From positions 16,408-80,407 of the forward strand of contig CALXPB010000001.1 in the NCBI GenBank assembly GCA_944390225.1: a stretch of 64,000 bases of DNA. Direction: 5' to 3'. The position numbers and the translations under genes were made by a program. The notes under the pieces are model-generated. The model searched no databases. It was not told the origin of the DNA and saw only the letters and a list, made by a program, of their open reading frames with translations. Every line of letters starts with the position of its first letter. Position 1 is the first letter of the stretch. The stretch is from an uncultured Alphaproteobacteria bacterium. GTDB lineage: Bacteria > Pseudomonadota > Alphaproteobacteria > Rs-D84. Shown here piece after piece: positions 5,352-63,401 of this stretch.

Positions 5352-6962
5352 TCATTCTTCAATTTCTAGACTGTCAATATAAGTCCTGTTAACGCGTTCT
5401 AATGGTACAGATATAAAATCAGGAGATACGATTGCCTGACCTGTATCTTCTGGTAGAACTATCAGATTTTCTTGGTTAAAAAACATAGATTCGTCATATT
5501 CTGAGTTTATATTTGTTGCCCTCATTTTATATTTGCTTTGAAACCGTTCCGGAATCATAACATAATCGCCTAGATTAATTTCAATCGGATCCAGTTTTTT
5601 TGCTCCTGTCGGTCTTATATTATGCTGTTCTATGTTATAAATAGGAGCCAAAAAGTTTTGCGGAGCGTTTCTTACGATTCTTGTTGAACCGCTTCCAGTT
5701 AATTGTACAACCTGTAAAGCACGTTCACTTTCCCCAGTTGGTTTTAGTCTAAATAAACCATCAAGTCCGATGTATCCACTGGGGTCCAGAAGATATGCTG
5801 CGTTGCTTTTGTCAGAGTAAATCATACCTATTGCCATATTTGCTGCGTCATAACCAAAAGTTGCTAATCTATTTGGTGCTTTACCAGACATTTGTTCGTA
5901 TAAGTTAGTAAATTCATATGAAATTTCTGGTAATGTTGCGTACTTAGCACCGTACATTGTAAAATCGTTTGCTATATCAGAACCTTCCCATACGGCAGTA
6001 CCATAAAAGCGAACGTCTTTGGCATCAACACCATAATAGCGTAAGAAAGATGCGATGTTTTTAGTATCATCAGAAGTTCCTAAGAATAAAACGGCATCAT
6101 AAGGTAAATTACCTAATGTGTCTGATTTTGATAAGTTTTCTAATTGAATCGTCATAGATGATTTTTCAATTATTGTAAGAAGTTCGTTCGTTAAAATATC
6201 TGATAAAACTTCGCGTGCCTTGGTATTTGCTGCAACCCGCGAATCGTTCATAGATGCTTCTTTGGTTATGTTTTTTATGGACTCGGAATCATTTTCATTA
6301 TAGTAAAAAATACCGGAAACTGGTACGTTATATATTTCTGAAGCACTTACAGCAGTCCCAGCCATTAATTTACCGGATGACGTGTTAGGGGCTACAATTA
6401 TGAAACTTTTTATGCCGTCATAAAACATTTCTTTTACTATCGTTTCAATACTGTTTGTCGGCATCAATGCCATTGTCATAACACCTTTCCCGATAGAGCT
6501 AGCATCTGATGTAAACGATAAAACAGGTAAATTGTCCGGTTTAAGATTTCGCAACGCACGGGCATCATCTGAAAATACAGGTCCTATTATTATTTCAGGA
6601 TTTTCTGAAAGTGCGTCATTTATAGCGTTATAAGATTCTGTGTCATAAAAAGATACCGATAAGTTCCGAGGTGCATTTTGTAAAACAGCAGTTTCAATAG
6701 ATGTTCTGATGGTCTGACCTGTTGCAGCGTTATCGCCAGATAGCGGTAATAACACAGTCATTCTATGAACTGGTGCACCTAAAAAGTTATCAGAAGGGCG
6801 ACCCACTTGGGTTTCTTGTGAACTATATTGTATTTGAGCAGGACTACCTGTTTCAAGTTCTCTGTACCCACCGAACCAATCTTCTTGTGGTGCCCCGCAA
6901 GCAGCCAGTAATAATAATGTTAAAAAAACAAAAAATTTCTTTATATACATTGAAAAATCCAT
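5352..6962 (-). CDS. LpoA/LppC-like lipoprotein (periplasmic-binding-protein fold, putative penicillin-binding-protein activator)
   Basis: Lipobox LLLAAC. Type-I PBP-like body. Divergent from rsmI, as lpoA(yraM)/rsmI(yraL) are in E. coli. Alternative start 6950. Confidence 0.55.
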   Translation of the reverse strand: MDFSMYIKKFFVFLTLLLLAACGAPQEDWFGGYRELETGSPAQIQYSSQETQVGRPSDNFLGAPVHRMTVLLPLSGDNAATGQTIRTSIETAVLQNAPRNLSVSFYDTESYNAINDALSENPEIIIGPVFSDDARALRNLKPDNLPVLSFTSDASSIGKGVMTMALMPTNSIETIVKEMFYDGIKSFIIVAPNTSSGKLMAGTAVSASEIYNVPVSGIFYYNENDSESIKNITKEASMNDSRVAANTKAREVLSDILTNELLTIIEKSSMTIQLENLSKSDTLGNLPYDAVLFLGTSDDTKNIASFLRYYGVDAKDVRFYGTAVWEGSDIANDFTMYGAKYATLPEISYEFTNLYEQMSGKAPNRLATFGYDAANMAIGMIYSDKSNAAYLLDPSGYIGLDGLFRLKPTGESERALQVVQLTGSGSTRIVRNAPQNFLAPIYNIEQHNIRPTGAKKLDPIEINLGDYVMIPERFQSKYKMRATNINSEYDESMFFNQENLIVLPEDTGQAIVSPDFISVPLERVNRTYIDSLEIEE

Positions 6963-8347: not shown

Positions 8348-10844
8348 AAAAGTCTTTTATCCAACAAATCCTGCACATACGCTGGATGCGCTGTGGAAAA
8401 TTTTGTCCGATTCAGAAACGGACTTAGAAAATATTTTAATATTTTTACCCAGTCGCCGTGCAGTCAGATCTGTAGAAAAATTTCTGGTTAAAAAATACGG
8501 TCATTGCATTATTCTGCCTCGTTTGGTTGCATTAGGTGAGGGGATAGATGATTTAGACGATGAAACAGAATATACAGATGTAATTTCTGATACAGAGAGA
8601 CTTGTACTTTTGATAAAATTATTATCACAAGATGCAAGTATAGGGAATATTACAACAGCAATACCAATTGCTCGTGATTTATTGCGTATGCAAGATTATC
8701 TTGAAAACGAGGGAATTGATGCGTCAAAAATTTGTTGGTCTGAATTGGTAGATGAAAAATACGCAGAACATTTTCAGCATAAAGCAGATTTATTAAATAT
8801 TTTATCACAGGTACAATCTTTTTATGCTCGGAATAAACAGACTCGGGTACAGGCGCGAAATAAAGATATTCATTCATGGATAAAACATCTAGATGAATAT
8901 AAGTTGGTTGTTGTATGTGGTTCTACGGGTAGTGTACCGGCTACGGCTGATTTAATGGAGGCTGTTTTTAATAAAGATCATGGGCGAATTATATTGTCAG
9001 GAAAAATAGTAGGGCGCAAAGAAGATTTTGAAATTGATTCAAATCCTTATAATGCAGAATATAAATTTCTAAAACGTATAGGACTAAATCCGTCAGATAT
9101 ATCAACTATTGAAGTTGGAAATAGCGCAATAGATTTTTTTAATTACGCTTTCGGAAATGATGCAGAAAATCTTGGCGGGGGTGAAAGTATAACTCACTGC
9201 CATTTAATAGAATGTTCACGAGAAAGCGAAGAAGCATCTGTCGTTGCCGAGATTGCAAACCGTGCAGTGTCAGAATCTAAAAATGTTCTTGTTATTACAC
9301 CGGATGCAGCAGGAAATCAGCGAATCGCAACAGAGTTGATTGCGCGCGGTCTGAAAGCAGATTTTTCGGGTGGTGTTTCTGGTACTATGACTGCAACTGG
9401 GCGTGGGCTATTAAATATGTTTGATGAATGGATAGAAAAAGAGGACTACTCTGTTTTTGAGAAATTTTATTACGATTCTGAAAAAGATTTTTTCAAGACA
9501 ATTATAAATTTGGTTCAATATAGTGATATTGCTTTTAACCCTTCGTTTGAAATTACCGATTCGGTTTCTATGCAAATATGGGGGACTATAAAAAATCTAT
9601 CAGATTGTTTAAATAAAGCAGATCTACATTTAAATGTATTTGATGCTCGTTCTTTATTAGCAGATACAATAAATGGAATTACTGTTCGGAGTGATATGGA
9701 TGATGAAGCAAAAATATTTGTTTTGGGAACCATAGAATCTAGAATGCAAACTGCGGACGTTGTAATTTTGACAGGTTTGAACGAAGGAATGTTCCCCGCA
9801 CAAGGATATGAAAACGCTTGGTTACCAAGACAATTGTCAAAAGAAATAGGTCTGCCTTCACCTGATAGAAAGGTTTCTTTACAGGCTTTGGATTTTATGA
9901 ATTTGTCTTGCGGAAAAGAAGTTTATTGGTTGCGTAGCAGAATATCAGGTGGTGTACAAACAACCGAATCAAGATTTTTATCTCGTATTATGGCTCGATT
10001 TGGAAAAATAGATTTTAACGTTGGGCAAGATATATTAAACTCAGTTCGTGCAAAAGATGTCATAAATTTAAATCCTTTGGATTATTCGGCGCCTACGCCA
10101 CCTGCTGATTGGTCTGATGTTTTTGTAACAGAATTGGAATTACTAATACATAATCCATACGCTTTTTATGTAAAACATATTTTACGTTTACAACCAAAAG
10201 ATGATTACTGGTTGCCTCCGGATGCAAGAGTGTTTGGGAATCTTGTACATGCAGTAGTTCAAGATAGTAAAGATTTTTCTTCGCATAATTTAGTCCAAGA
10301 AATGGATAACCGGGCACATAAGGTTTTAGGAAAAGATAGCATTTTATTCCACTTCTGGCATAAACGTTTTGTTGAAATTGCACCGATAATAGAACAAGAA
10401 TTATCACAGATAAAAGATTCTTTGGCAGAGATTGAAGGAAAGGTAGAAATTGCCGGAAGAAATATTCGTGCACGCGCTGATAGAATCTGGGACGGATGTG
10501 TCGTTGATATTAAAACCGGTTCCGCACCAAAAGAAAAACAATTATTAGAAGGTAATATGCCTCAATTACCGCTGGAAGCATATATTTTAAAAAATTCTGG
10601 TTTTCCGCTTTATACAACTGAAAAATCAAAAACACCTATAATGATGTTTTTACAATTAAAAAATAATGATGTAAGAGCGATAAAATACGATTCTGAAACA
10701 ACAGAAAAAATGATTTCTGCCGCGGTCGAAAAAACAACCGGTTTAATAAATATGTTTTCTGTCGGTCGTGCTCCATATGAATACAGAGAAACAAACGACA
10801 GAAAATATAAAGCATATGATGATTTTGCCAGATGTGACGACTGA
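8334..10844 (+). CDS. addB: Double-strand break repair protein AddB (alphaproteobacterial type), relatively short (836 aa)
   Basis: N-terminus LIFLPSRRAVRSVEKFL. C-terminal PD-(D/E)xK nuclease (RADRIW..VVDIKTGSAP..EAYIL). C-terminal YDDFARCDD. No addA follows. Confidence 0.7.
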   Translation: MVLSKKVFYPTNPAHTLDALWKILSDSETDLENILIFLPSRRAVRSVEKFLVKKYGHCIILPRLVALGEGIDDLDDETEYTDVISDTERLVLLIKLLSQDASIGNITTAIPIARDLLRMQDYLENEGIDASKICWSELVDEKYAEHFQHKADLLNILSQVQSFYARNKQTRVQARNKDIHSWIKHLDEYKLVVVCGSTGSVPATADLMEAVFNKDHGRIILSGKIVGRKEDFEIDSNPYNAEYKFLKRIGLNPSDISTIEVGNSAIDFFNYAFGNDAENLGGGESITHCHLIECSRESEEASVVAEIANRAVSESKNVLVITPDAAGNQRIATELIARGLKADFSGGVSGTMTATGRGLLNMFDEWIEKEDYSVFEKFYYDSEKDFFKTIINLVQYSDIAFNPSFEITDSVSMQIWGTIKNLSDCLNKADLHLNVFDARSLLADTINGITVRSDMDDEAKIFVLGTIESRMQTADVVILTGLNEGMFPAQGYENAWLPRQLSKEIGLPSPDRKVSLQALDFMNLSCGKEVYWLRSRISGGVQTTESRFLSRIMARFGKIDFNVGQDILNSVRAKDVINLNPLDYSAPTPPADWSDVFVTELELLIHNPYAFYVKHILRLQPKDDYWLPPDARVFGNLVHAVVQDSKDFSSHNLVQEMDNRAHKVLGKDSILFHFWHKRFVEIAPIIEQELSQIKDSLAEIEGKVEIAGRNIRARADRIWDGCVVDIKTGSAPKEKQLLEGNMPQLPLEAYILKNSGFPLYTTEKSKTPIMMFLQLKNNDVRAIKYDSETTEKMISAAVEKTTGLINMFSVGRAPYEYRETNDRKYKAYDDFARCDD

Positions 10845-31593: not shown

Positions 31594-31655
31594 GATTTAT
31601 TCTCTTGGTTTAATTGTAAATTTTTTTACGATATATCGTAATTCATTATAAATAA

Positions 31656-31721
31656 TTAATAATTAAAGCGCACCCCAAAAGGGGATGAGCGAAAACTTAA
31701 AAAGTAATATTTCTTTTTCAT
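31656..31721 (-). promoter_or_regulatory. Candidate serS leader ORF (21 codons, MKKKYYFLSFRSSPFGVRFNY) containing Ser codons fused to a CCCC/GGGG hairpin
   Basis: The serS-strand block TCA TCC CCT TTT GGG GTG is in-frame homologous to ACA ACC CCT TTG GGG GTG upstream of thrS. TTGCTT (31759-31754), 17-nt spacer, TACTAT (31736-31731), ending 9 nt before the ATG. Confidence 0.4.
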
Positions 31722-31853
31722 GACAATAGAATAGTAAAATATTACCTTTAAAAAAGCAATCAAAAATAGGCTCTGGATAGCATGTAGAAAAAAATTGCGC
31801 CGTTTTTGTGATTGTGTTATGCTATGCCCCGAAAAGATAACGAGGAGTTTTTT

Positions 31854-51901: not shown

Positions 51902-53914
51902 ATGAAAGTTTTTATCAGTTATAATGATAATAGATGGAAAAAATACCATATAGATTTTGCAGAAATTGCAAACGCCGTTGTTGAACATACTAATAAAAAC
52001 GCCGAGGTTTCAATTGTTTTAACAAACGATACAGAAATTCACGAATTAAATAAAAAATATAGAAATATTGACAAGCCCACTAACGTTTTATCTTTTGAAT
52101 TAGATGATGATATTTTATTGGGAGATATTTATATATCTTTGGATACCGTTTTTCGTGAAGCAGATGAACTAGGTATATCTGTTGAAGACCATACCGCTCA
52201 TATGGTTGTACACGGGGTTTTACATTTATTGGGCTATGATCATATTAAAGATGAAGACGCAATTGTTATGGAATCAAAGGAAATAAAAGTGCTTAAAAAA
52301 CTAGGTATAAAAAATCCCTATGAATCAGAGTTAAACATTTGTTGTGATTCTTCTTGTTGTCCTGGTGGTCGTTTGCTTTCTTGGTTAAAAAAACTTAAAA
52401 TTCGTAAAAATAGTTTAGAGCAATATATTTTATTGTTTCTATTAGGTGGTATCGCTTCGCTTGGCTTTGCACCGTTTTATATGTGGTGGGCTACTGTTAT
52501 TGCCATTGCGTGTGCGTATAAATTAATTGTGCGCTCTGCAAATAAGAGTGACGGTTTATTTAAATGCTTTTTACGGGTCTTGCCGTTTAGTGCAACTTAT
52601 GCAGTTTCTATGTTTTGGTGGGTTTTACATTCTATATACGTTGTACCAGAATTAGCAACTCAGTTTGCAATATGGACTGCACCTGGAATATTGAGTATCG
52701 CGCTTGTCGGAGGTTTTGTTTTTTCTATTCCTTTTGTTGTAATATCTCGTATGTGCACGGTTCCTGCATATAGACCGATTTTTTTCGCTGCAACTTGGAC
52801 TTTTGTTTTATGGCTGCGAGAATGGTTGTTTACAGGTTTCCCTTGGAATCCAATTGCAAATATAACAATGACTTTACCTGTTTTGGCAAACTCTATGTCT
52901 GTGTTTGGGGCCTTGGGATTATCTTTCATTATAATAGGTTTAACCGCAACGATAGTAGAGTTGTTATCAGATAAAAAATCAAAAATAAATTGGTTAAATT
53001 TTTTAATTTTTATAATGCTTGGTGTTATAGGATCTATGCTCGGATATCGTAATATCCAAATTGCGCAAAAAGAAGAAAATATTTCTCCTGTTATTCGTGT
53101 CGTGCAACCCGCACAAAGTGCTGTTCAAAAGGCGTCTCATTCCAGAGCTGAAGCACTGAAAAACGCAGAAGAAAATATTAAAAATTTAATATTACTAGCA
53201 GTTGCTCCATATAAACCTGATTTAATAATTTTCCCCGAGACCTCTTACCCTTTTGTCGTAGTCAGAGATGATGTTTTGCCTATTGCTGATGCTATACAGG
53301 CTAAGGTTTTAATAGGCGCCACATCTTATGATGAAAAAGGTTTACATAATTCTATGCTAATTCTTTCGCCAGACGGTGTAATTCAAAATATTTATAGTAA
53401 ATCTCATCTTGTGCCGTTCGGAGAATACAGACCTTTCGGAGATCTTATACCTACTCCGGGGCAATTGGTTGCAGGTAACGGACCAGAAATTTTTACTTTA
53501 AAAATTAATGAAAAAGATTTTTCATTTATCCCGGCAATATGCTATGAGATAATTTTTTCTGATTCTTTGCAACCCCAAGAAAATATGCATATAGACGCGA
53601 TAGTTAATATCACAAATGATACCTGGTTCGGGAAAACACCAGGAACATATCAACATCTTGATATGGTGCGGAGATATGCGATTGAATCTGGATTACCTAT
53701 TATAAGAGCAAATTATTCTGGAATTAGTGCCTTTATATCTTCTGATGGTGAAATAATTTCTTATTTACCAATAGGTCAAGTTGGTCATCTGGACGGATTT
53801 GTGTGGGGAGCGCATAAAACTCTATATCGTACTGTCGGACGTGACGGCTGGATGATAATTATATTGGCGTTTTCGATTATATATGTTGCTATATTGGATA
53901 AAAGAAGAAAATAA
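51902..53914 (+). CDS. Fusion protein: YbeY endoribonuclease domain plus apolipoprotein N-acyltransferase (Lnt)
   Basis: One uninterrupted 670-codon ORF. N-terminus HGVLHLLGYDH (YbeY Zn site). A Cys-rich linker ICCDSSCCPGG, then Lnt TMs and nitrilase domain (FPE.., K in YSKSHLVPFGEY, C in PAICYEIIF, NITNDTWFG). Confidence 0.8.
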   Translation: MKVFISYNDNRWKKYHIDFAEIANAVVEHTNKNAEVSIVLTNDTEIHELNKKYRNIDKPTNVLSFELDDDILLGDIYISLDTVFREADELGISVEDHTAHMVVHGVLHLLGYDHIKDEDAIVMESKEIKVLKKLGIKNPYESELNICCDSSCCPGGRLLSWLKKLKIRKNSLEQYILLFLLGGIASLGFAPFYMWWATVIAIACAYKLIVRSANKSDGLFKCFLRVLPFSATYAVSMFWWVLHSIYVVPELATQFAIWTAPGILSIALVGGFVFSIPFVVISRMCTVPAYRPIFFAATWTFVLWLREWLFTGFPWNPIANITMTLPVLANSMSVFGALGLSFIIIGLTATIVELLSDKKSKINWLNFLIFIMLGVIGSMLGYRNIQIAQKEENISPVIRVVQPAQSAVQKASHSRAEALKNAEENIKNLILLAVAPYKPDLIIFPETSYPFVVVRDDVLPIADAIQAKVLIGATSYDEKGLHNSMLILSPDGVIQNIYSKSHLVPFGEYRPFGDLIPTPGQLVAGNGPEIFTLKINEKDFSFIPAICYEIIFSDSLQPQENMHIDAIVNITNDTWFGKTPGTYQHLDMVRRYAIESGLPIIRANYSGISAFISSDGEIISYLPIGQVGHLDGFVWGAHKTLYRTVGRDGWMIIILAFSIIYVAILDKRRK

Positions 53915-60538: not shown

Positions 60539-61290
60539 CAAAAACAACAAAAGTTATACGTAAAAAACTGAAAGAAGTAAAGCATAATCCTCGTGGTAAT
60601 CGTTTGTTGCGCATTCTACGTGCTACGGGCTTGTTTCGCTGGGAAAGACCCTCAACAAAATCAGAAGAAGTATTAAATATACTTACGCATGGTATAGGTA
60701 TCGGCTTGGCAATAGCAGGATTAACGTTATTAGTTGTATTCGCTGCTTTGGCAGGTAATGTGTGGGCTATCGTTTCTTGCGCTATTTTCGGTTTGACTAT
60801 GTTTACATTATATTTCGGTTCAACTATGTGTCATGCAACAATAGGACAGAAAAGTGAGTGTTTTTTTGAGGTTTGGGATAGTGTTGCCATCTATGCCTTG
60901 ATAGCCGGCACATACACGCCTTTTTTACTAGTTAATTTACGTGGTTGGATTGGGTGGACTGTTTTTGGAATATTGTGGGCGGTAGTTGTATTCGGAGCAA
61001 TCATGAAAATTCGTAATCCAAAACAGCAACCGAAGTGGATGGTTGCATTATATCTGATTATGGGTTGGACTCTGTTGTTCATTTTACCGGCAATGTTACG
61101 TTCTATACCTGTGCGAGGTTTGTGGTTCATTTTAGCCGGAGGTTTGTCGTATACTTTGGGGGTTATTTTTTACTTGTGGCGTAAAATGAAGTACTCTCAT
61201 GCAATTTGGCATATATTTGTAATTGGAGGAAGTGTCTGTTTCTTTTTCGCGGTTTTGTTCGGTTGTATCATAGATTTTCATGTTTTATAA
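60535..61290 (+). CDS. Hemolysin III / PAQR family membrane protein
   Basis: 7 TM. EVLNILTHGIG.., STMCHA.., YSHAIWHIFVIGGS. Confidence 0.85.
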   Translation: MTKTTKVIRKKLKEVKHNPRGNRLLRILRATGLFRWERPSTKSEEVLNILTHGIGIGLAIAGLTLLVVFAALAGNVWAIVSCAIFGLTMFTLYFGSTMCHATIGQKSECFFEVWDSVAIYALIAGTYTPFLLVNLRGWIGWTVFGILWAVVVFGAIMKIRNPKQQPKWMVALYLIMGWTLLFILPAMLRSIPVRGLWFILAGGLSYTLGVIFYLWRKMKYSHAIWHIFVIGGSVCFFFAVLFGCIIDFHVL

Positions 61291-61332
61291 AAGTTGACTT
61301 ATTTTAATAACAGTATTAATATATTTATTGAT

Positions 61333-61386
61333 ATGATAAAAAATATATTGTTCTTTATCACAGCAACAACCCCTTTGGGGGTGTAG
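61333..61386 (+). promoter_or_regulatory. Candidate thrS leader ORF (17 codons, MIKNILFFITATTPLGV) with Thr codons forming the 5' arm of a terminator-like hairpin
   Basis: ACA GCA ACA ACC CCT TTG GGG GTG TAG. Inner CCCC/GGGG hairpin. Outer stem ACAGCAA (61360-61366) / TTGCTGT (61394-61400) plus TTTTCTT. TTGACT (61294-61299), 17-nt spacer, TAATAT (61317-61322), ending 10 nt before the ATG. Confidence 0.4.
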
Positions 61387-61407
61387 TTTCTATTTGCTGT
61401 TTTTCTT
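61360..61407 (+). terminator. Compound hairpin plus U-tract between hlyIII and thrS (terminator or attenuator)
   Basis: 7-bp outer stem enclosing a CCCC-TTTG-GGGG hairpin, followed by TTTTCTT. Confidence 0.55.
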
Positions 61408-61456
61408 ATGTAATGTATAATTAAAATACTATAATTATAAAAATAAGGGTTTTATT

Positions 61457-63190
61457 ATGTCTTATCCAATCGAAACGGTACGTCATTCTCTGGCGCATGT
61501 TATGGCGGCTGCGGTACAGAAACTTTATCCGGATGTAAAATTTGCCGGTGGACCAGCAATTGAAAACGGTTTTTATTATGACTTTGATACAGAACATCGT
61601 TTTTCAGAAGAAGATTTTGCAAAAATAGAAAAAGAAATGCGCGACTTGATAAAGTCAAACGGCAAATTTGAACAACGTAATGTAAGTCTGAACGAAGCCA
61701 AAGAAATTTTTGCAAATCAACCTTATAAAATGGAATGGTTAAATGAATATGATGCAGCAGGCGAGGATTTGTCTATTTATAAATTCCGAGACTTTACGGA
61801 TTTATGTCGCGGGCCGCACGTTGAAACTTCCAAAGATTTACCACGTGACAGTTTCAAAATTCGTAATGTCGCAGGGGCATACTGGAAAGGCGATTCGAAA
61901 AATAAGATGTTACAACGAATTTATGTAGATGCTTTTGCAAGTAAAGAAGAACTTGATCAACATCTGAAAAATATGGAAGCAGCCGCCGCTCGTGATAATC
62001 GTAAACTTGGTAAAGATATGGACTTGTTCCATTTTGAACCAGATTATGCACCGGGGGCTGTTTTTTGGCATGACAAGGGCTATAAAATATATCGTAAACT
62101 TATAGAATACGTTCGTCATCGTCAAGAGCTGGCAGGTTATCAAGAAATTTCTACTCCATCCGTTATGGATAGGTCTTTGTGGGAACGCAGCGGTCACTGG
62201 GCTAAATATGGGGAACATAATTATTCTGGAAAAACTCAAGATGGTAAAACATTCTGTGTTAAGCCAATGTCTTGCCCAGGGGGTATGTTGGTATTCGGGC
62301 AGGGCATTAAATCTTATAAAGATTTGCCGTTGTATTTGGCAGAATTCGGAAAAGTTAATCGTTACGAAGCGGCTGGCGGATTGTCCGGACTGATGCGCGT
62401 TCGTGAATTTACGCAAGACGATGCACATATTTTCTGCACGGAAGAACAATTAGAAGAAGAAGTTGTTAAAATATTGCGCTTTATTAAAGATATTTATTCC
62501 AAATTCGGCTTTGAAAAAATTTCTACTAAATTAGCAACGCGTAAAGAATCTGAATTCCGTATCGGTTCAGATGAAATTTGGGATAAGGCCGAAGGGGCTT
62601 TAAAGCATGCTTTGGATGCAAATGGTATCGAATATGAAATTGCAAAAGGTGACGCCGCTTTTTATGGTCCTAAAATAGACATTTATTTAAAAGATTCTAT
62701 CGGACGTACTTGGCAATGCGGTACTGTGCAGTTGGATATGAATTTGCCTGAACGCTTTGATTTGTCCTATATAGGCGAAGATGGCGAAAAGCATCGCCCA
62801 ATTATGTTACACCGTGCAATGCTGGGTTCAATTGAACGTTTTATGGGCGTTTTGTTAGAATCAACAGGTGGTAATTTACCGTTATGGTTATCGCCAGAGC
62901 CCGTCGTTGTGACCCCTATTTCCGAGAAGTTCAAAGATTATGCAATAGAGATAGTTGATGAATTGCGTAAGAACGGTGTTTATTGTCGTGCAGATTTGCG
63001 TGATGAAAAAGTTAATTATAAAATTCGTGAATTATCTTTGGCTAAAACTCCTATCATCGCAATCGTCGGTGAAAAGGAGGCAGCAGATAAAATGGTAACT
63101 TTACGTTATCTTGGAATAGAAAAACAGGAAACGAAACCGTTGGCAGAATTTGTAGAACAAATGAAACGCGATACAAAAATGCCTTTGTGA
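61457..63190 (+). CDS. thrS: Threonine--tRNA ligase lacking the N-terminal TGS domain
   Basis: Starts at the editing-domain HxxxH region (VRHSLAHVMAAAV). Class II core (FRDFTDLCRGPH, RVREFTQDDAHIF, GSIERF). 577 aa. SD AAGGG. Confidence 0.9.
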   Translation: MSYPIETVRHSLAHVMAAAVQKLYPDVKFAGGPAIENGFYYDFDTEHRFSEEDFAKIEKEMRDLIKSNGKFEQRNVSLNEAKEIFANQPYKMEWLNEYDAAGEDLSIYKFRDFTDLCRGPHVETSKDLPRDSFKIRNVAGAYWKGDSKNKMLQRIYVDAFASKEELDQHLKNMEAAAARDNRKLGKDMDLFHFEPDYAPGAVFWHDKGYKIYRKLIEYVRHRQELAGYQEISTPSVMDRSLWERSGHWAKYGEHNYSGKTQDGKTFCVKPMSCPGGMLVFGQGIKSYKDLPLYLAEFGKVNRYEAAGGLSGLMRVREFTQDDAHIFCTEEQLEEEVVKILRFIKDIYSKFGFEKISTKLATRKESEFRIGSDEIWDKAEGALKHALDANGIEYEIAKGDAAFYGPKIDIYLKDSIGRTWQCGTVQLDMNLPERFDLSYIGEDGEKHRPIMLHRAMLGSIERFMGVLLESTGGNLPLWLSPEPVVVTPISEKFKDYAIEIVDELRKNGVYCRADLRDEKVNYKIRELSLAKTPIIAIVGEKEAADKMVTLRYLGIEKQETKPLAEFVEQMKRDTKMPL

Positions 63191-63257: not shown

Positions 63258-63401
63258 ATGAAAAAAATATTTTTTTTGGTTTTTGTTTTAGTTACACCTA
63301 TGGTGTTATCTGCTTGTGCGACTAAGTGCGAGACCGAGCCTATTGTAGAGGAAAATCATAAATTGATTGTACCACCTAATTTTGGACAAAAGCCAAAATA
63401 A
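63258..63401 (+). CDS. Small lipoprotein (47 aa), not in ORF track
   Basis: MKKIFFLVFVLVTPMVLSAC.. lipobox LSAC. SD AAGGGAA. ..LIVPPNFGQKPK. Confidence 0.55.
   Translation: MKKIFFLVFVLVTPMVLSACATKCETEPIVEENHKLIVPPNFGQKPK

Follow-up and report, generated by a model that had tools for sequence, protein, structure and literature searches.

In a 64,000-nucleotide (nt) stretch of DNA from an uncultured alphaproteobacterium (GCA_944390225.1, contig CALXPB010000001.1, positions 16,408 to 80,407; hereafter the window, whose own numbering is used throughout), the gene for threonyl-tRNA synthetase, thrS, is preceded by a compact leader in which a very short open reading frame (ORF) with threonine codons runs directly into a hairpin. 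The gene itself (61457-63190, plus strand) encodes a 577-residue threonyl-tRNA synthetase (ThrRS) with the Pfam domains tRNA_SAD, tRNA-synt_2b and HGTP_anticodon and without a TGS domain. Upstream on the same strand, the stop codon of hlyIII (61288-61290) is followed by promoter P1 at 61294-61322 (TTGACT 61294-61299, a 17-nt spacer and TAATAT 61317-61322) and, 10 nt later, by the leader ORF, whose 17 codons extend from the ATG at 61333 to the TAG at 61384-61386 in a frame that is kept in relatives (product MIKNILFFITATTPLGV). Its regulatory codons, Thr-Ala-Thr-Thr, occupy 61360-61371 (ACA 61360, GCA 61363, ACA 61366, ACC 61369), and hairpin 1 lies at 61369-61382 (ACCCC 61369-61373 paired with GGGGT 61378-61382 around the loop TTTG), so that its 5' arm consists of the last Thr codon, ACC, and the CC of the Pro codon. 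Folding places an outer stem around hairpin 1 at 61360-61400 (ACAGCAA 61360-61366 with TTGCTGT 61394-61400), and all three Thr codons sit inside the 5' arms of hairpin stems. Between 61387 and 61407 there are two U-rich tracts, the conserved TTTCTATTT 3' of the stop codon and TTTTCTT (61401-61407) 3' of the outer stem, the latter present only in the window species. A promoter-like sequence, P2, follows at 61394-61421 (TTGCTG 61394, a 16-nt spacer, TATAAT 61416), and a Shine-Dalgarno sequence, AAGGG, at 61445-61449. An initial annotation made from the letters alone had listed these elements together with a counterpart upstream of the seryl-tRNA synthetase gene, serS, and each was found in the sequence where it had been placed.

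Searching with the ThrRS protein, one genome per species, recovered 55 loci at 74-90% identity and 25 at about 60%. The closer loci, which stem from the guts of humans, chickens, ruminants, rodents and termites, carry the labels uncultured Alphaproteobacteria, Rickettsiales or Candidatus Enterousia, and the more distant ones belong to other gut Alphaproteobacteria. The window organism is a Candidatus Enterousia-like gut alphaproteobacterium of the order Rs-D84; Enterousia, of this order, has genomes of less than 1 Mb and lacks amino-acid biosynthesis (PMC12306168). Loci are numbered L001-L054 for the thrS loci of the leader-bearing group and L056-L080 for the group at about 60% identity, in which no leader was found upstream of thrS. 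The leader comparison covers 53 species-level genomes with a readable thrS upstream region; counts by locus refer to 54 loci and codon counts to 49 distinct sequences. Among six independent assemblies of the window species the leader region is identical, with the sole exception of a G-to-A difference at 61363 in L162 (position 1407 of that locus), which turns GCA (Ala) into ACA (Thr) and gives four consecutive Thr codons. The ThrRS of the leader-bearing clade, with 577 residues, begins at the editing (tRNA_SAD) domain and has no N-terminal TGS domain, and that of L056-L080 has about 65 extra N-terminal residues and keeps the TGS domain; the presence of the leader coincides with the loss of this domain.

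The leader ORF is a constant feature of the closer group. A small ORF lies 80-95 nt upstream of thrS, or farther where insertions intervene, in 53/53 readable relatives at 74-90% identity; it comprises 17-23 codons and ends in T(4-8)-P-x-G-V-stop, as in the peptides MKKYFVFFVTTTTTPAGV, MKEFMIILTFTTTTTTPLGV and MKQIWFIFTTTTTTTTPAGVR. Threonine occupies the six codons before Pro in, nearest first, 49/49, 49/49, 44/49, 40/49, 35/49 and 34/49 sequences, and the Thr content of ThrRS itself is 3.3%. Within the Thr run, A and C are fixed at codon positions 1 and 2 and all four bases occur at position 3. Pro and Gly are invariant in the 49 sequences, the position that separates these two varies freely (L, A, T, F, W, V), the Val codon varies synonymously (GTG/GTC/GTA/GTT), and a stop codon (TAA/TAG/TGA) stands directly after it in 43/49. 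This three-base periodicity, together with the kept start and stop codons, argues for a translated ORF rather than an RNA motif alone, and the pattern of substitutions identifies the leader as a genuine conserved translated-frame element, as the initial annotation had proposed. That annotation had also allowed that relatives might conserve the hairpin and not the ORF; the ORF is conserved as well. The window species, with three Thr codons (T-A-T-T) as opposed to 4-8 in its relatives, has the shortest run of all.

Promoter P1 accompanies the ORF in 54/54 loci, with the architecture TTGAC/T(A/T)-17 nt-TAnnAT in 53/54. The leader ATG stands 6-10 nt past the -10 hexamer of P1 in 51/54, and no Shine-Dalgarno sequence was found at the leader ORF. 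Ordinary genes of the window do have one, including thrS (AAGGG) and argS (AAGGG, 32 nt downstream of its -10 hexamer). Given the short gap between -10 hexamer and ATG and the missing Shine-Dalgarno sequence, the leader ORF is probably leaderless or nearly so, if the transcript start is placed by standard sigma70 geometry. In every case the module directly precedes the synthetase gene and shares its orientation.

The four C-G pairs of hairpin 1 are invariant in 55/55 sequences and enclose a freely varying loop of 3-4 nt, and the closing pair is A-U in thrS leaders (ACCCC...GGGGU) versus U-A in two serS leaders (UCCCC...GGGGA). Where Val is encoded by GTG, the stem can be extended by ACA/UGU across a bulged A. 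Past the stop codon, thrS leaders share the almost unvarying sequence TAATTTCTATTT, which has its counterpart in the TTTTCATTT of serS leaders. The compound hairpin that forms with the outer stem in the window has a folding energy of -15.1 kcal/mol (z = -2.6; equally stable in 2/200 shuffles) and is terminator-like together with TTTTCTT, and the inner hairpin was flagged by a terminator scan of the window. The initial annotation had made the outer stem part of the regulatory hairpin, which describes the window species but not the clade, for most relatives do not have it and a comparable one folded only in L001. Because of this absence, and because the L162 polymorphism at 61363 breaks one of its C-G pairs, we regard the outer stem as a probable recent, lineage-specific addition and not as a defining part of the module. 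The RNAalifold consensus of 50 sequences contains hairpin 1 only, single-sequence folds place hairpin 1 and a second hairpin (hairpin 2, described below) side by side with no alternative pairing, and no complementarity was seen between hairpin arms, U tract and Thr run except in the outer stems of the window and L001.

The partner module of the window lies on the minus strand at 31645-31764, upstream of serS (31593-30313). It has a P1 of its own (TTGCTT 31759, a 17-nt spacer, TACTAT 31736) followed after 9 nt by a leader ORF at 31721-31656 (product MKKKYYFLSFRSSPFGVRFNY), a hairpin at 31684-31673 (CCCCTTTTGGGG) and a TATAAT at 31650-31645. This ORF contains TCA TCC CCT TTT GGG GTG, and the 14-mer CCCCTTTNGGGGTG occurs at exactly two sites in the 64 kb, the thrS and serS leaders, with two copies in 0/100 shuffles. 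Similarly, a Ser-run leader stands directly upstream of serS in L016 (MKNRFVFFSSSSSSPLGE), another is present in L025, and Ser leaders were found in 14/73 metagenomic serS loci with a readable upstream region (MRHWFVSFSSFSSSPLGE and MKKFIYLSYSFSSSPCGY are examples), or in 17/76 when L016, L025 and the window are added. These leaders carry runs of 3-6 Ser codons ahead of a hairpin homologous to hairpin 1 of thrS, and divergent representatives (L118, L142, L149, L150, L158, L159) also have the thrS-type downstream block of stop codon, TTTTCATTTGCG, second hairpin and TATAAT. Moreover, a covariance model trained on thrS leaders only detects serS leaders, at E = 1e-6 for L142, E = 2e-4 for L159 and E = 0.02 for another. 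By these comparisons the thrS and serS modules are homologous, and their amino-acid-defining bases match each synthetase, Thr runs at thrS and Ser runs at serS; the base swap that had been pointed out for the window therefore holds across many genomes.

The serS leader is absent from many rumen relatives (L082-L141), where trxB immediately precedes serS in the same orientation or serS has a plain promoter only. The serS module has been lost repeatedly; the thrS module is universal in the clade. Further copies were found at no other gene by a scan of the window for small ORFs with codon runs or by motif scans over 1.3 Mb of thrS and serS neighbourhoods, and argS and gltX of the window have no leader. 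An extra small hairpin lies 3' of the downstream TATAAT in serS leaders, at 31600-31645 on the minus strand of the window (TACGATATATCGTA) and at 10395-10425 on the minus strand of L016 (TGCGAAACACATCGCA), and would fall at the 5' end of a P2-type transcript.

The second promoter had been raised at the outset as a caveat, and it proved to be among the best conserved parts of the locus. P2 is present in every locus as TTGC(G/A)N followed by TATAAT (35/54) or AATAAT (14/54), with a spacer of 17 nt in 43/54 loci, 16 nt in 8 and 18 nt in 2. Nearly all relatives (L001-L054) carry within its -35 hexamer and spacer the second hairpin, of the form GCNN-loop-NNGC, about 25-60 nt after hairpin 1. Hairpin 2 starts at the GC of TTGC and spans 12-17 nt with loops of 4-9 nt, and the distance from the -35 to the -10 hexamer stays constant despite this varying span, which argues for P2 as a real sigma70 promoter. 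The stem occurs as GCGG/CCGC, GCGC/GCGC, GCGA/TCGC, GCAC/GTGC and GCGT/ACGC, and is a perfect 4-bp stem in 39/50 distinct sequences versus 1.2 expected after shuffling. At its fourth pair the model-fitted alignment has GC 19, CG 14, AU 6, GU 4, UG 3 and UA 2; the covariation score is 0.171 as against 0.046 in shuffled alignments (reached in 0/500) and at most 0.045 with the partners slid, all in an alignment that was itself fitted to the structure. Hairpin 2 is missing from both modules of the window (61394-61421 at thrS; 31645-31672, minus strand, at serS), and this joint loss suggests that hairpin 2 has a function or a partner common to the two modules. A role for hairpin 2 as a terminator was rejected, the terminator rule being satisfied in 3/54 loci; its role as a protein operator was judged improbable and set aside, as its half-sites covary and their spacing ranges over 4-9 nt.

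Insertions occur between P2 and thrS in some relatives. The element in L053 (about 5830-5990) measures about 130 nt, has long inverted repeats at its ends (TGTCATTCCCGCGCAGGCGGGAATAGGG...) and resembles a miniature inverted-repeat element, and a GC-rich hairpin is inserted in L027 (about 5935-5965). In L041 the predicted thrS start lies far 3' of the leader module.

At the gathering threshold, Rfam models found only two tRNA genes in the whole window, and at E values up to 10 neither a T-box nor any other credible match was obtained near the leaders of the window and L007. Thr_leader (RF00506) had no match in the window, and in L007 matched the opposite strand only, at 18.3 bits (gathering 55; E = 0.29). 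Our literature search found no prior description of a leader peptide at thrS or serS. In the pheST operon of Escherichia coli, the leader is introduced by a Shine-Dalgarno sequence, terminator and antiterminator hairpins alternate, and a strong terminator with a U run lies well downstream of the ORF, whereas the thrS leader ORF is probably leaderless, has its sole hairpin inside the ORF, lacks an antiterminator and is followed by a second promoter. The two are alike in that a short ORF rich in cognate codons (pheM in E. coli) stands between promoter and synthetase gene with the ribosome as sensor of charged tRNA; work on the attenuation of pheST is cited in PMC4082710 (Fayat 1983; Springer 1985).

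Cognate-codon ORFs upstream of a synthetase gene or paralog have likewise been predicted by comparative genomics for trpS2 of Streptomyces avermitilis (PMC1262725) and for hisS paralogs of bacilli, which have a His leader (PMC2965389); unlike the thrS and serS leaders, these belong to other phyla and other amino acids and are described as classical attenuators or premature terminators. The polycysteine leaderless short ORFs of mycobacteria, members of a multi-locus "ribulon" (Canestrari et al., bioRxiv 10.1101/834739), are similar in being a leaderless (here predicted) run of one codon type, at several loci, whose occupancy alone blocks (here would block) an mRNA structure, and differ in that the ribosome-binding site of thrS shows no consistent pairing with the leader and that the targets here are synthetase and not biosynthesis genes. 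Masking of the thrS ribosome-binding site, which is 85 nt from the leader, was rejected by partition-function folding of 51 P1 transcripts, in which the median unpaired probability from Shine-Dalgarno sequence to AUG was 0.51 without and 0.48 with a stalled ribosome. The leader of the thr operon, thrL (RF00506), also uses a run of Thr codons as a sensor of Thr-tRNA, but it controls thrABC biosynthesis, contains Ile codons too and is a classical multi-hairpin attenuator, and the organisms studied here do not synthesize Thr (PMC12306168). Both T-box leaders and the thrS operator of E. coli serve the purpose proposed for the thrS leader, more ThrRS when tRNA-Thr is undercharged or in excess, and sense the tRNA or ThrRS directly by RNA structure, with no need for a translated ORF. 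The thrS leader is neither a T-box nor an E. coli-type thrS operator, a distinction drawn by the initial annotation which the Rfam searches and hairpin loops free of anticodon-like triplets bear out. The module of thrS and serS falls outside both classical alternative-hairpin attenuation and mycobacterial ribosome-binding-site control, and belongs to no Rfam, Pfam or NCBIfam family.

We think it somewhat probable that the thrS leader is a cis-acting sensor of charged tRNA-Thr, in which a very short, probably leaderless ORF is read by a ribosome, the hairpin and U tract halt P1 transcripts unless that ribosome stalls, and P2 provides basal expression. Transcripts from P1 would begin a few bases 5' of the leader ATG, and a ribosome translating the leader would have to read the Thr run, the end of which (ACC plus CC) forms the 5' arm of the GC hairpin ahead of a U-rich tract. 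When Thr-tRNA-Thr is scarce, the ribosome would dwell on the Thr run and keep the hairpin open, so that P1 transcripts reach thrS; in the window species it would also block the outer stem, whose 5' arm is ACA-GCA-A. When charging is good, hairpin and U tract would stop or destabilize P1 transcripts upstream of thrS, and constitutive transcription from P2 would supply basal ThrRS for an essential gene. Because the last Thr codon lies within the stem, hairpin 1 must be held open by any ribosome that waits at one of the final three or four Thr codons. Sensing at synthetase genes is plausible in organisms without amino-acid synthesis (PMC12306168).

The components of this scheme, namely the conserved promoter, the ORF, the match of codon run and synthetase, the hairpin, the U-rich tract and P2, are all observed, and the sensor appears solid. 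Leaderless initiation, ribosome stalling, the direction of the response and a hairpin acting by transcription termination are what we infer from their arrangement, and the output step may be terminator occlusion, Rho or mRNA stability. The identity of the ORF as a cognate-codon leader, put forward in the initial annotation, holds, but several features weigh against its proposed output, terminator occlusion. In most relatives the U tract begins about 4 nt past the core stem of hairpin 1 and is interrupted and weak; hairpin 1 satisfies a lax terminator rule in 30/54 loci, each time with no more than the required 5 T in 8; the ACA/UGU extension of the stem is confined to the 29/49 sequences with Val = GTG; and there is no mutually exclusive antiterminator. 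The window copy is the most degenerate of all, with three Thr codons and no hairpin 2. There is also a kinetic difficulty: a ribosome held up at the start of a 6-8-codon run, on its first or second codon, would be expected to fall short of the hairpin, and a closely coupled ribosome that does not stall would be expected to mask it too, so that pure occlusion would not obviously be induced by starvation. Furthermore, P2 is conserved at least as well as P1 and could supply all thrS transcription, and the covarying hairpin 2 inside it has no role in the terminator-occlusion model.

The same sensor could act differently, a possibility to which we give clearly less weight: the stalled ribosome would mask a C-rich, G-poor loading site for Rho, made up of the Thr or Ser run, CCCC and a CA-rich spacer, or would shield the 5' end of the P1 transcript from decay, in either case leaving more full-length thrS mRNA when Thr-tRNA is scarce. 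Rho-dependent leaders are known in tnaC, mgtL and corL, and leader-induced mRNA stability in ermC. The ratio of C to G is 2.72 in the leader ORF and 2.35 in the spacer versus 0.66 in the thrS coding sequence, and C exceeds G in 50/50 leaders and 42/50 spacers, but AT-rich bacteria commonly have A-rich, G-poor 5' regions, which makes this composition unspecific, and the C-rich tract is short, at about 25 nt. Both known versions of the module use NCN codons (ACN, UCN), and gltX, with GAR codons, and argS have no leader. The weakness of the intrinsic U tract and the lack of an antiterminator fit such an output, which would act after the first ribosome has passed and so might avoid the timing problem of occlusion; it leaves the invariant stem of the hairpin unexplained, however. 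A tblastn search with E. coli Rho gave no match in the 1.3 Mb of thrS and serS neighbourhoods that it covered, which is uninformative as to the presence of Rho in these genomes. The geometry of stalling could instead be taken to invert the response, as in pyrBI, with fast reading keeping the ribosome behind RNA polymerase so that the hairpin is blocked and read through, early stalling uncoupling the two so that P1 transcripts stop, and ThrRS made from P1 following translation capacity. On known ribosome footprint sizes, the first stall sites of runs with 6-8 Thr codons are 15-21 nt upstream of the hairpin, which leaves the hairpin free; the ORF spans the hairpin and has its stop codon shortly beyond it, like the pyrBI leader, and a leaderless start would be expected to favour early loading of ribosomes. 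We nevertheless consider this inversion improbable, as all cognate-codon runs so far studied at synthetase genes (T-box, pheST) are induced by starvation, it would make little sense physiologically for an essential charging enzyme to be under positive feedback, and simple coupling needs no Thr- or Ser-specific codons.

Other explanations dispense with the sensor altogether. The product of the ORF might be a functional hydrophobic micro-peptide, or the P1 transcript an independent small RNA, with thrS transcribed from P2 only; the leader peptide peTrpL and the attenuator RNA rnTrpL of Sinorhizobium act in trans and offer a precedent (PMC7298713, PMC6614838), P2 is highly conserved, and the N-terminal half of the peptide is steadily hydrophobic (F/I/V/L) after M-K/N. 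Beyond this hydrophobicity the N-terminal sequence is poorly conserved, the peptide has no Pfam or NCBIfam match, and the switch from Thr to Ser tracks the downstream synthetase exactly, which a peptide function would not predict; together with the fixed position of the module upstream of the synthetase gene on its strand, this makes both variants very unlikely. It is yet harder to see the hairpin as the terminator of hlyIII only, with the ORF and promoter hexamers arising by chance in AT-rich DNA, a caveat of the initial annotation. In the window, 3 nt separate the end of hlyIII from TTGACT, hlyIII lacks its own terminator, and promoter-like hexamers are no commoner than in shuffled sequence (10 found versus 8.0 expected), but hlyIII is the upstream gene in 26/54 loci only, the module staying with thrS where it is not; at least nine loci have a separate strong terminator just before P1; 53 species keep the ORF with its frame and Thr run, and P1 as well; and the serS copy of the window lies between the divergent genes trxB and serS, with no upstream gene to terminate. 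Conservation, changing upstream genes and separate upstream terminators led us to reject this explanation. Scarcely any more credible is an operator that binds protein or tRNA, whether through autoregulation by ThrRS on a mimic of the tRNA anticodon arm, as in E. coli, or through T-box-like sensing of tRNA. Two hairpins upstream of a synthetase gene, the second without an explained role, would suit it, but the T-box and other Rfam families gave nothing credible near the leader, the loops of 4-9 nt are unconserved and contain no anticodon-like NGU triplet, the hairpins are 45-85 nt from the thrS ribosome-binding site, and they are common to serS, which is unexpected of a ThrRS-specific operator.

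As a more tentative reading, to which we give a low probability, the Enterousia-like (Rs-D84) bacteria may run a small synthetase regulon through leaderless cognate-codon ORFs with a non-classical output, in which hairpin 2 would couple read-through of the sensor to P2, for example by hairpin- or sigma-dependent pausing with Rho or by promoter occlusion and not by a simple terminator, and the loss of hairpin 2 from both modules of the window would reflect a shared trans-acting partner. A covarying hairpin within a conserved promoter may mean that attenuation is linked to a promoter that lies downstream. Leader-peptide control is known almost only at amino-acid biosynthesis operons, with few synthetase cases (pheST, trpS, hisS paralogs), and the thrS and serS leaders would extend it across an order of uncultured gut bacteria with genomes of less than 1 Mb; since these organisms are unable to make amino acids, nowhere but at the synthetases could they still respond to charging. 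The module has very few parts: its start is probably leaderless, its ORF has about 18 codons, and the stem of its one hairpin is built from the regulatory codons. Its two paralogous versions, which differ exactly in the amino-acid-defining bases, provide a natural test bed for a minimal ribosome-based sensor as well as two ready-made parts for sensing the charging of Thr or Ser tRNA.

Two further observations concern other genes of the window. Directly 3' of thrS, a 47-residue ORF (63258-63401, plus strand) with a lipoprotein-like signal (MKKIFFLVFVLVTPMVLSAC...) has a gene call in all six contigs of the same species. A 670-residue ORF at 51902-53914 (plus strand) encodes a YbeY endoribonuclease domain at its N-terminus together with the domains of an apolipoprotein N-acyltransferase (LNT_N and CN_hydrolase), and represents either a gene fusion or two genes joined by the ORF caller.

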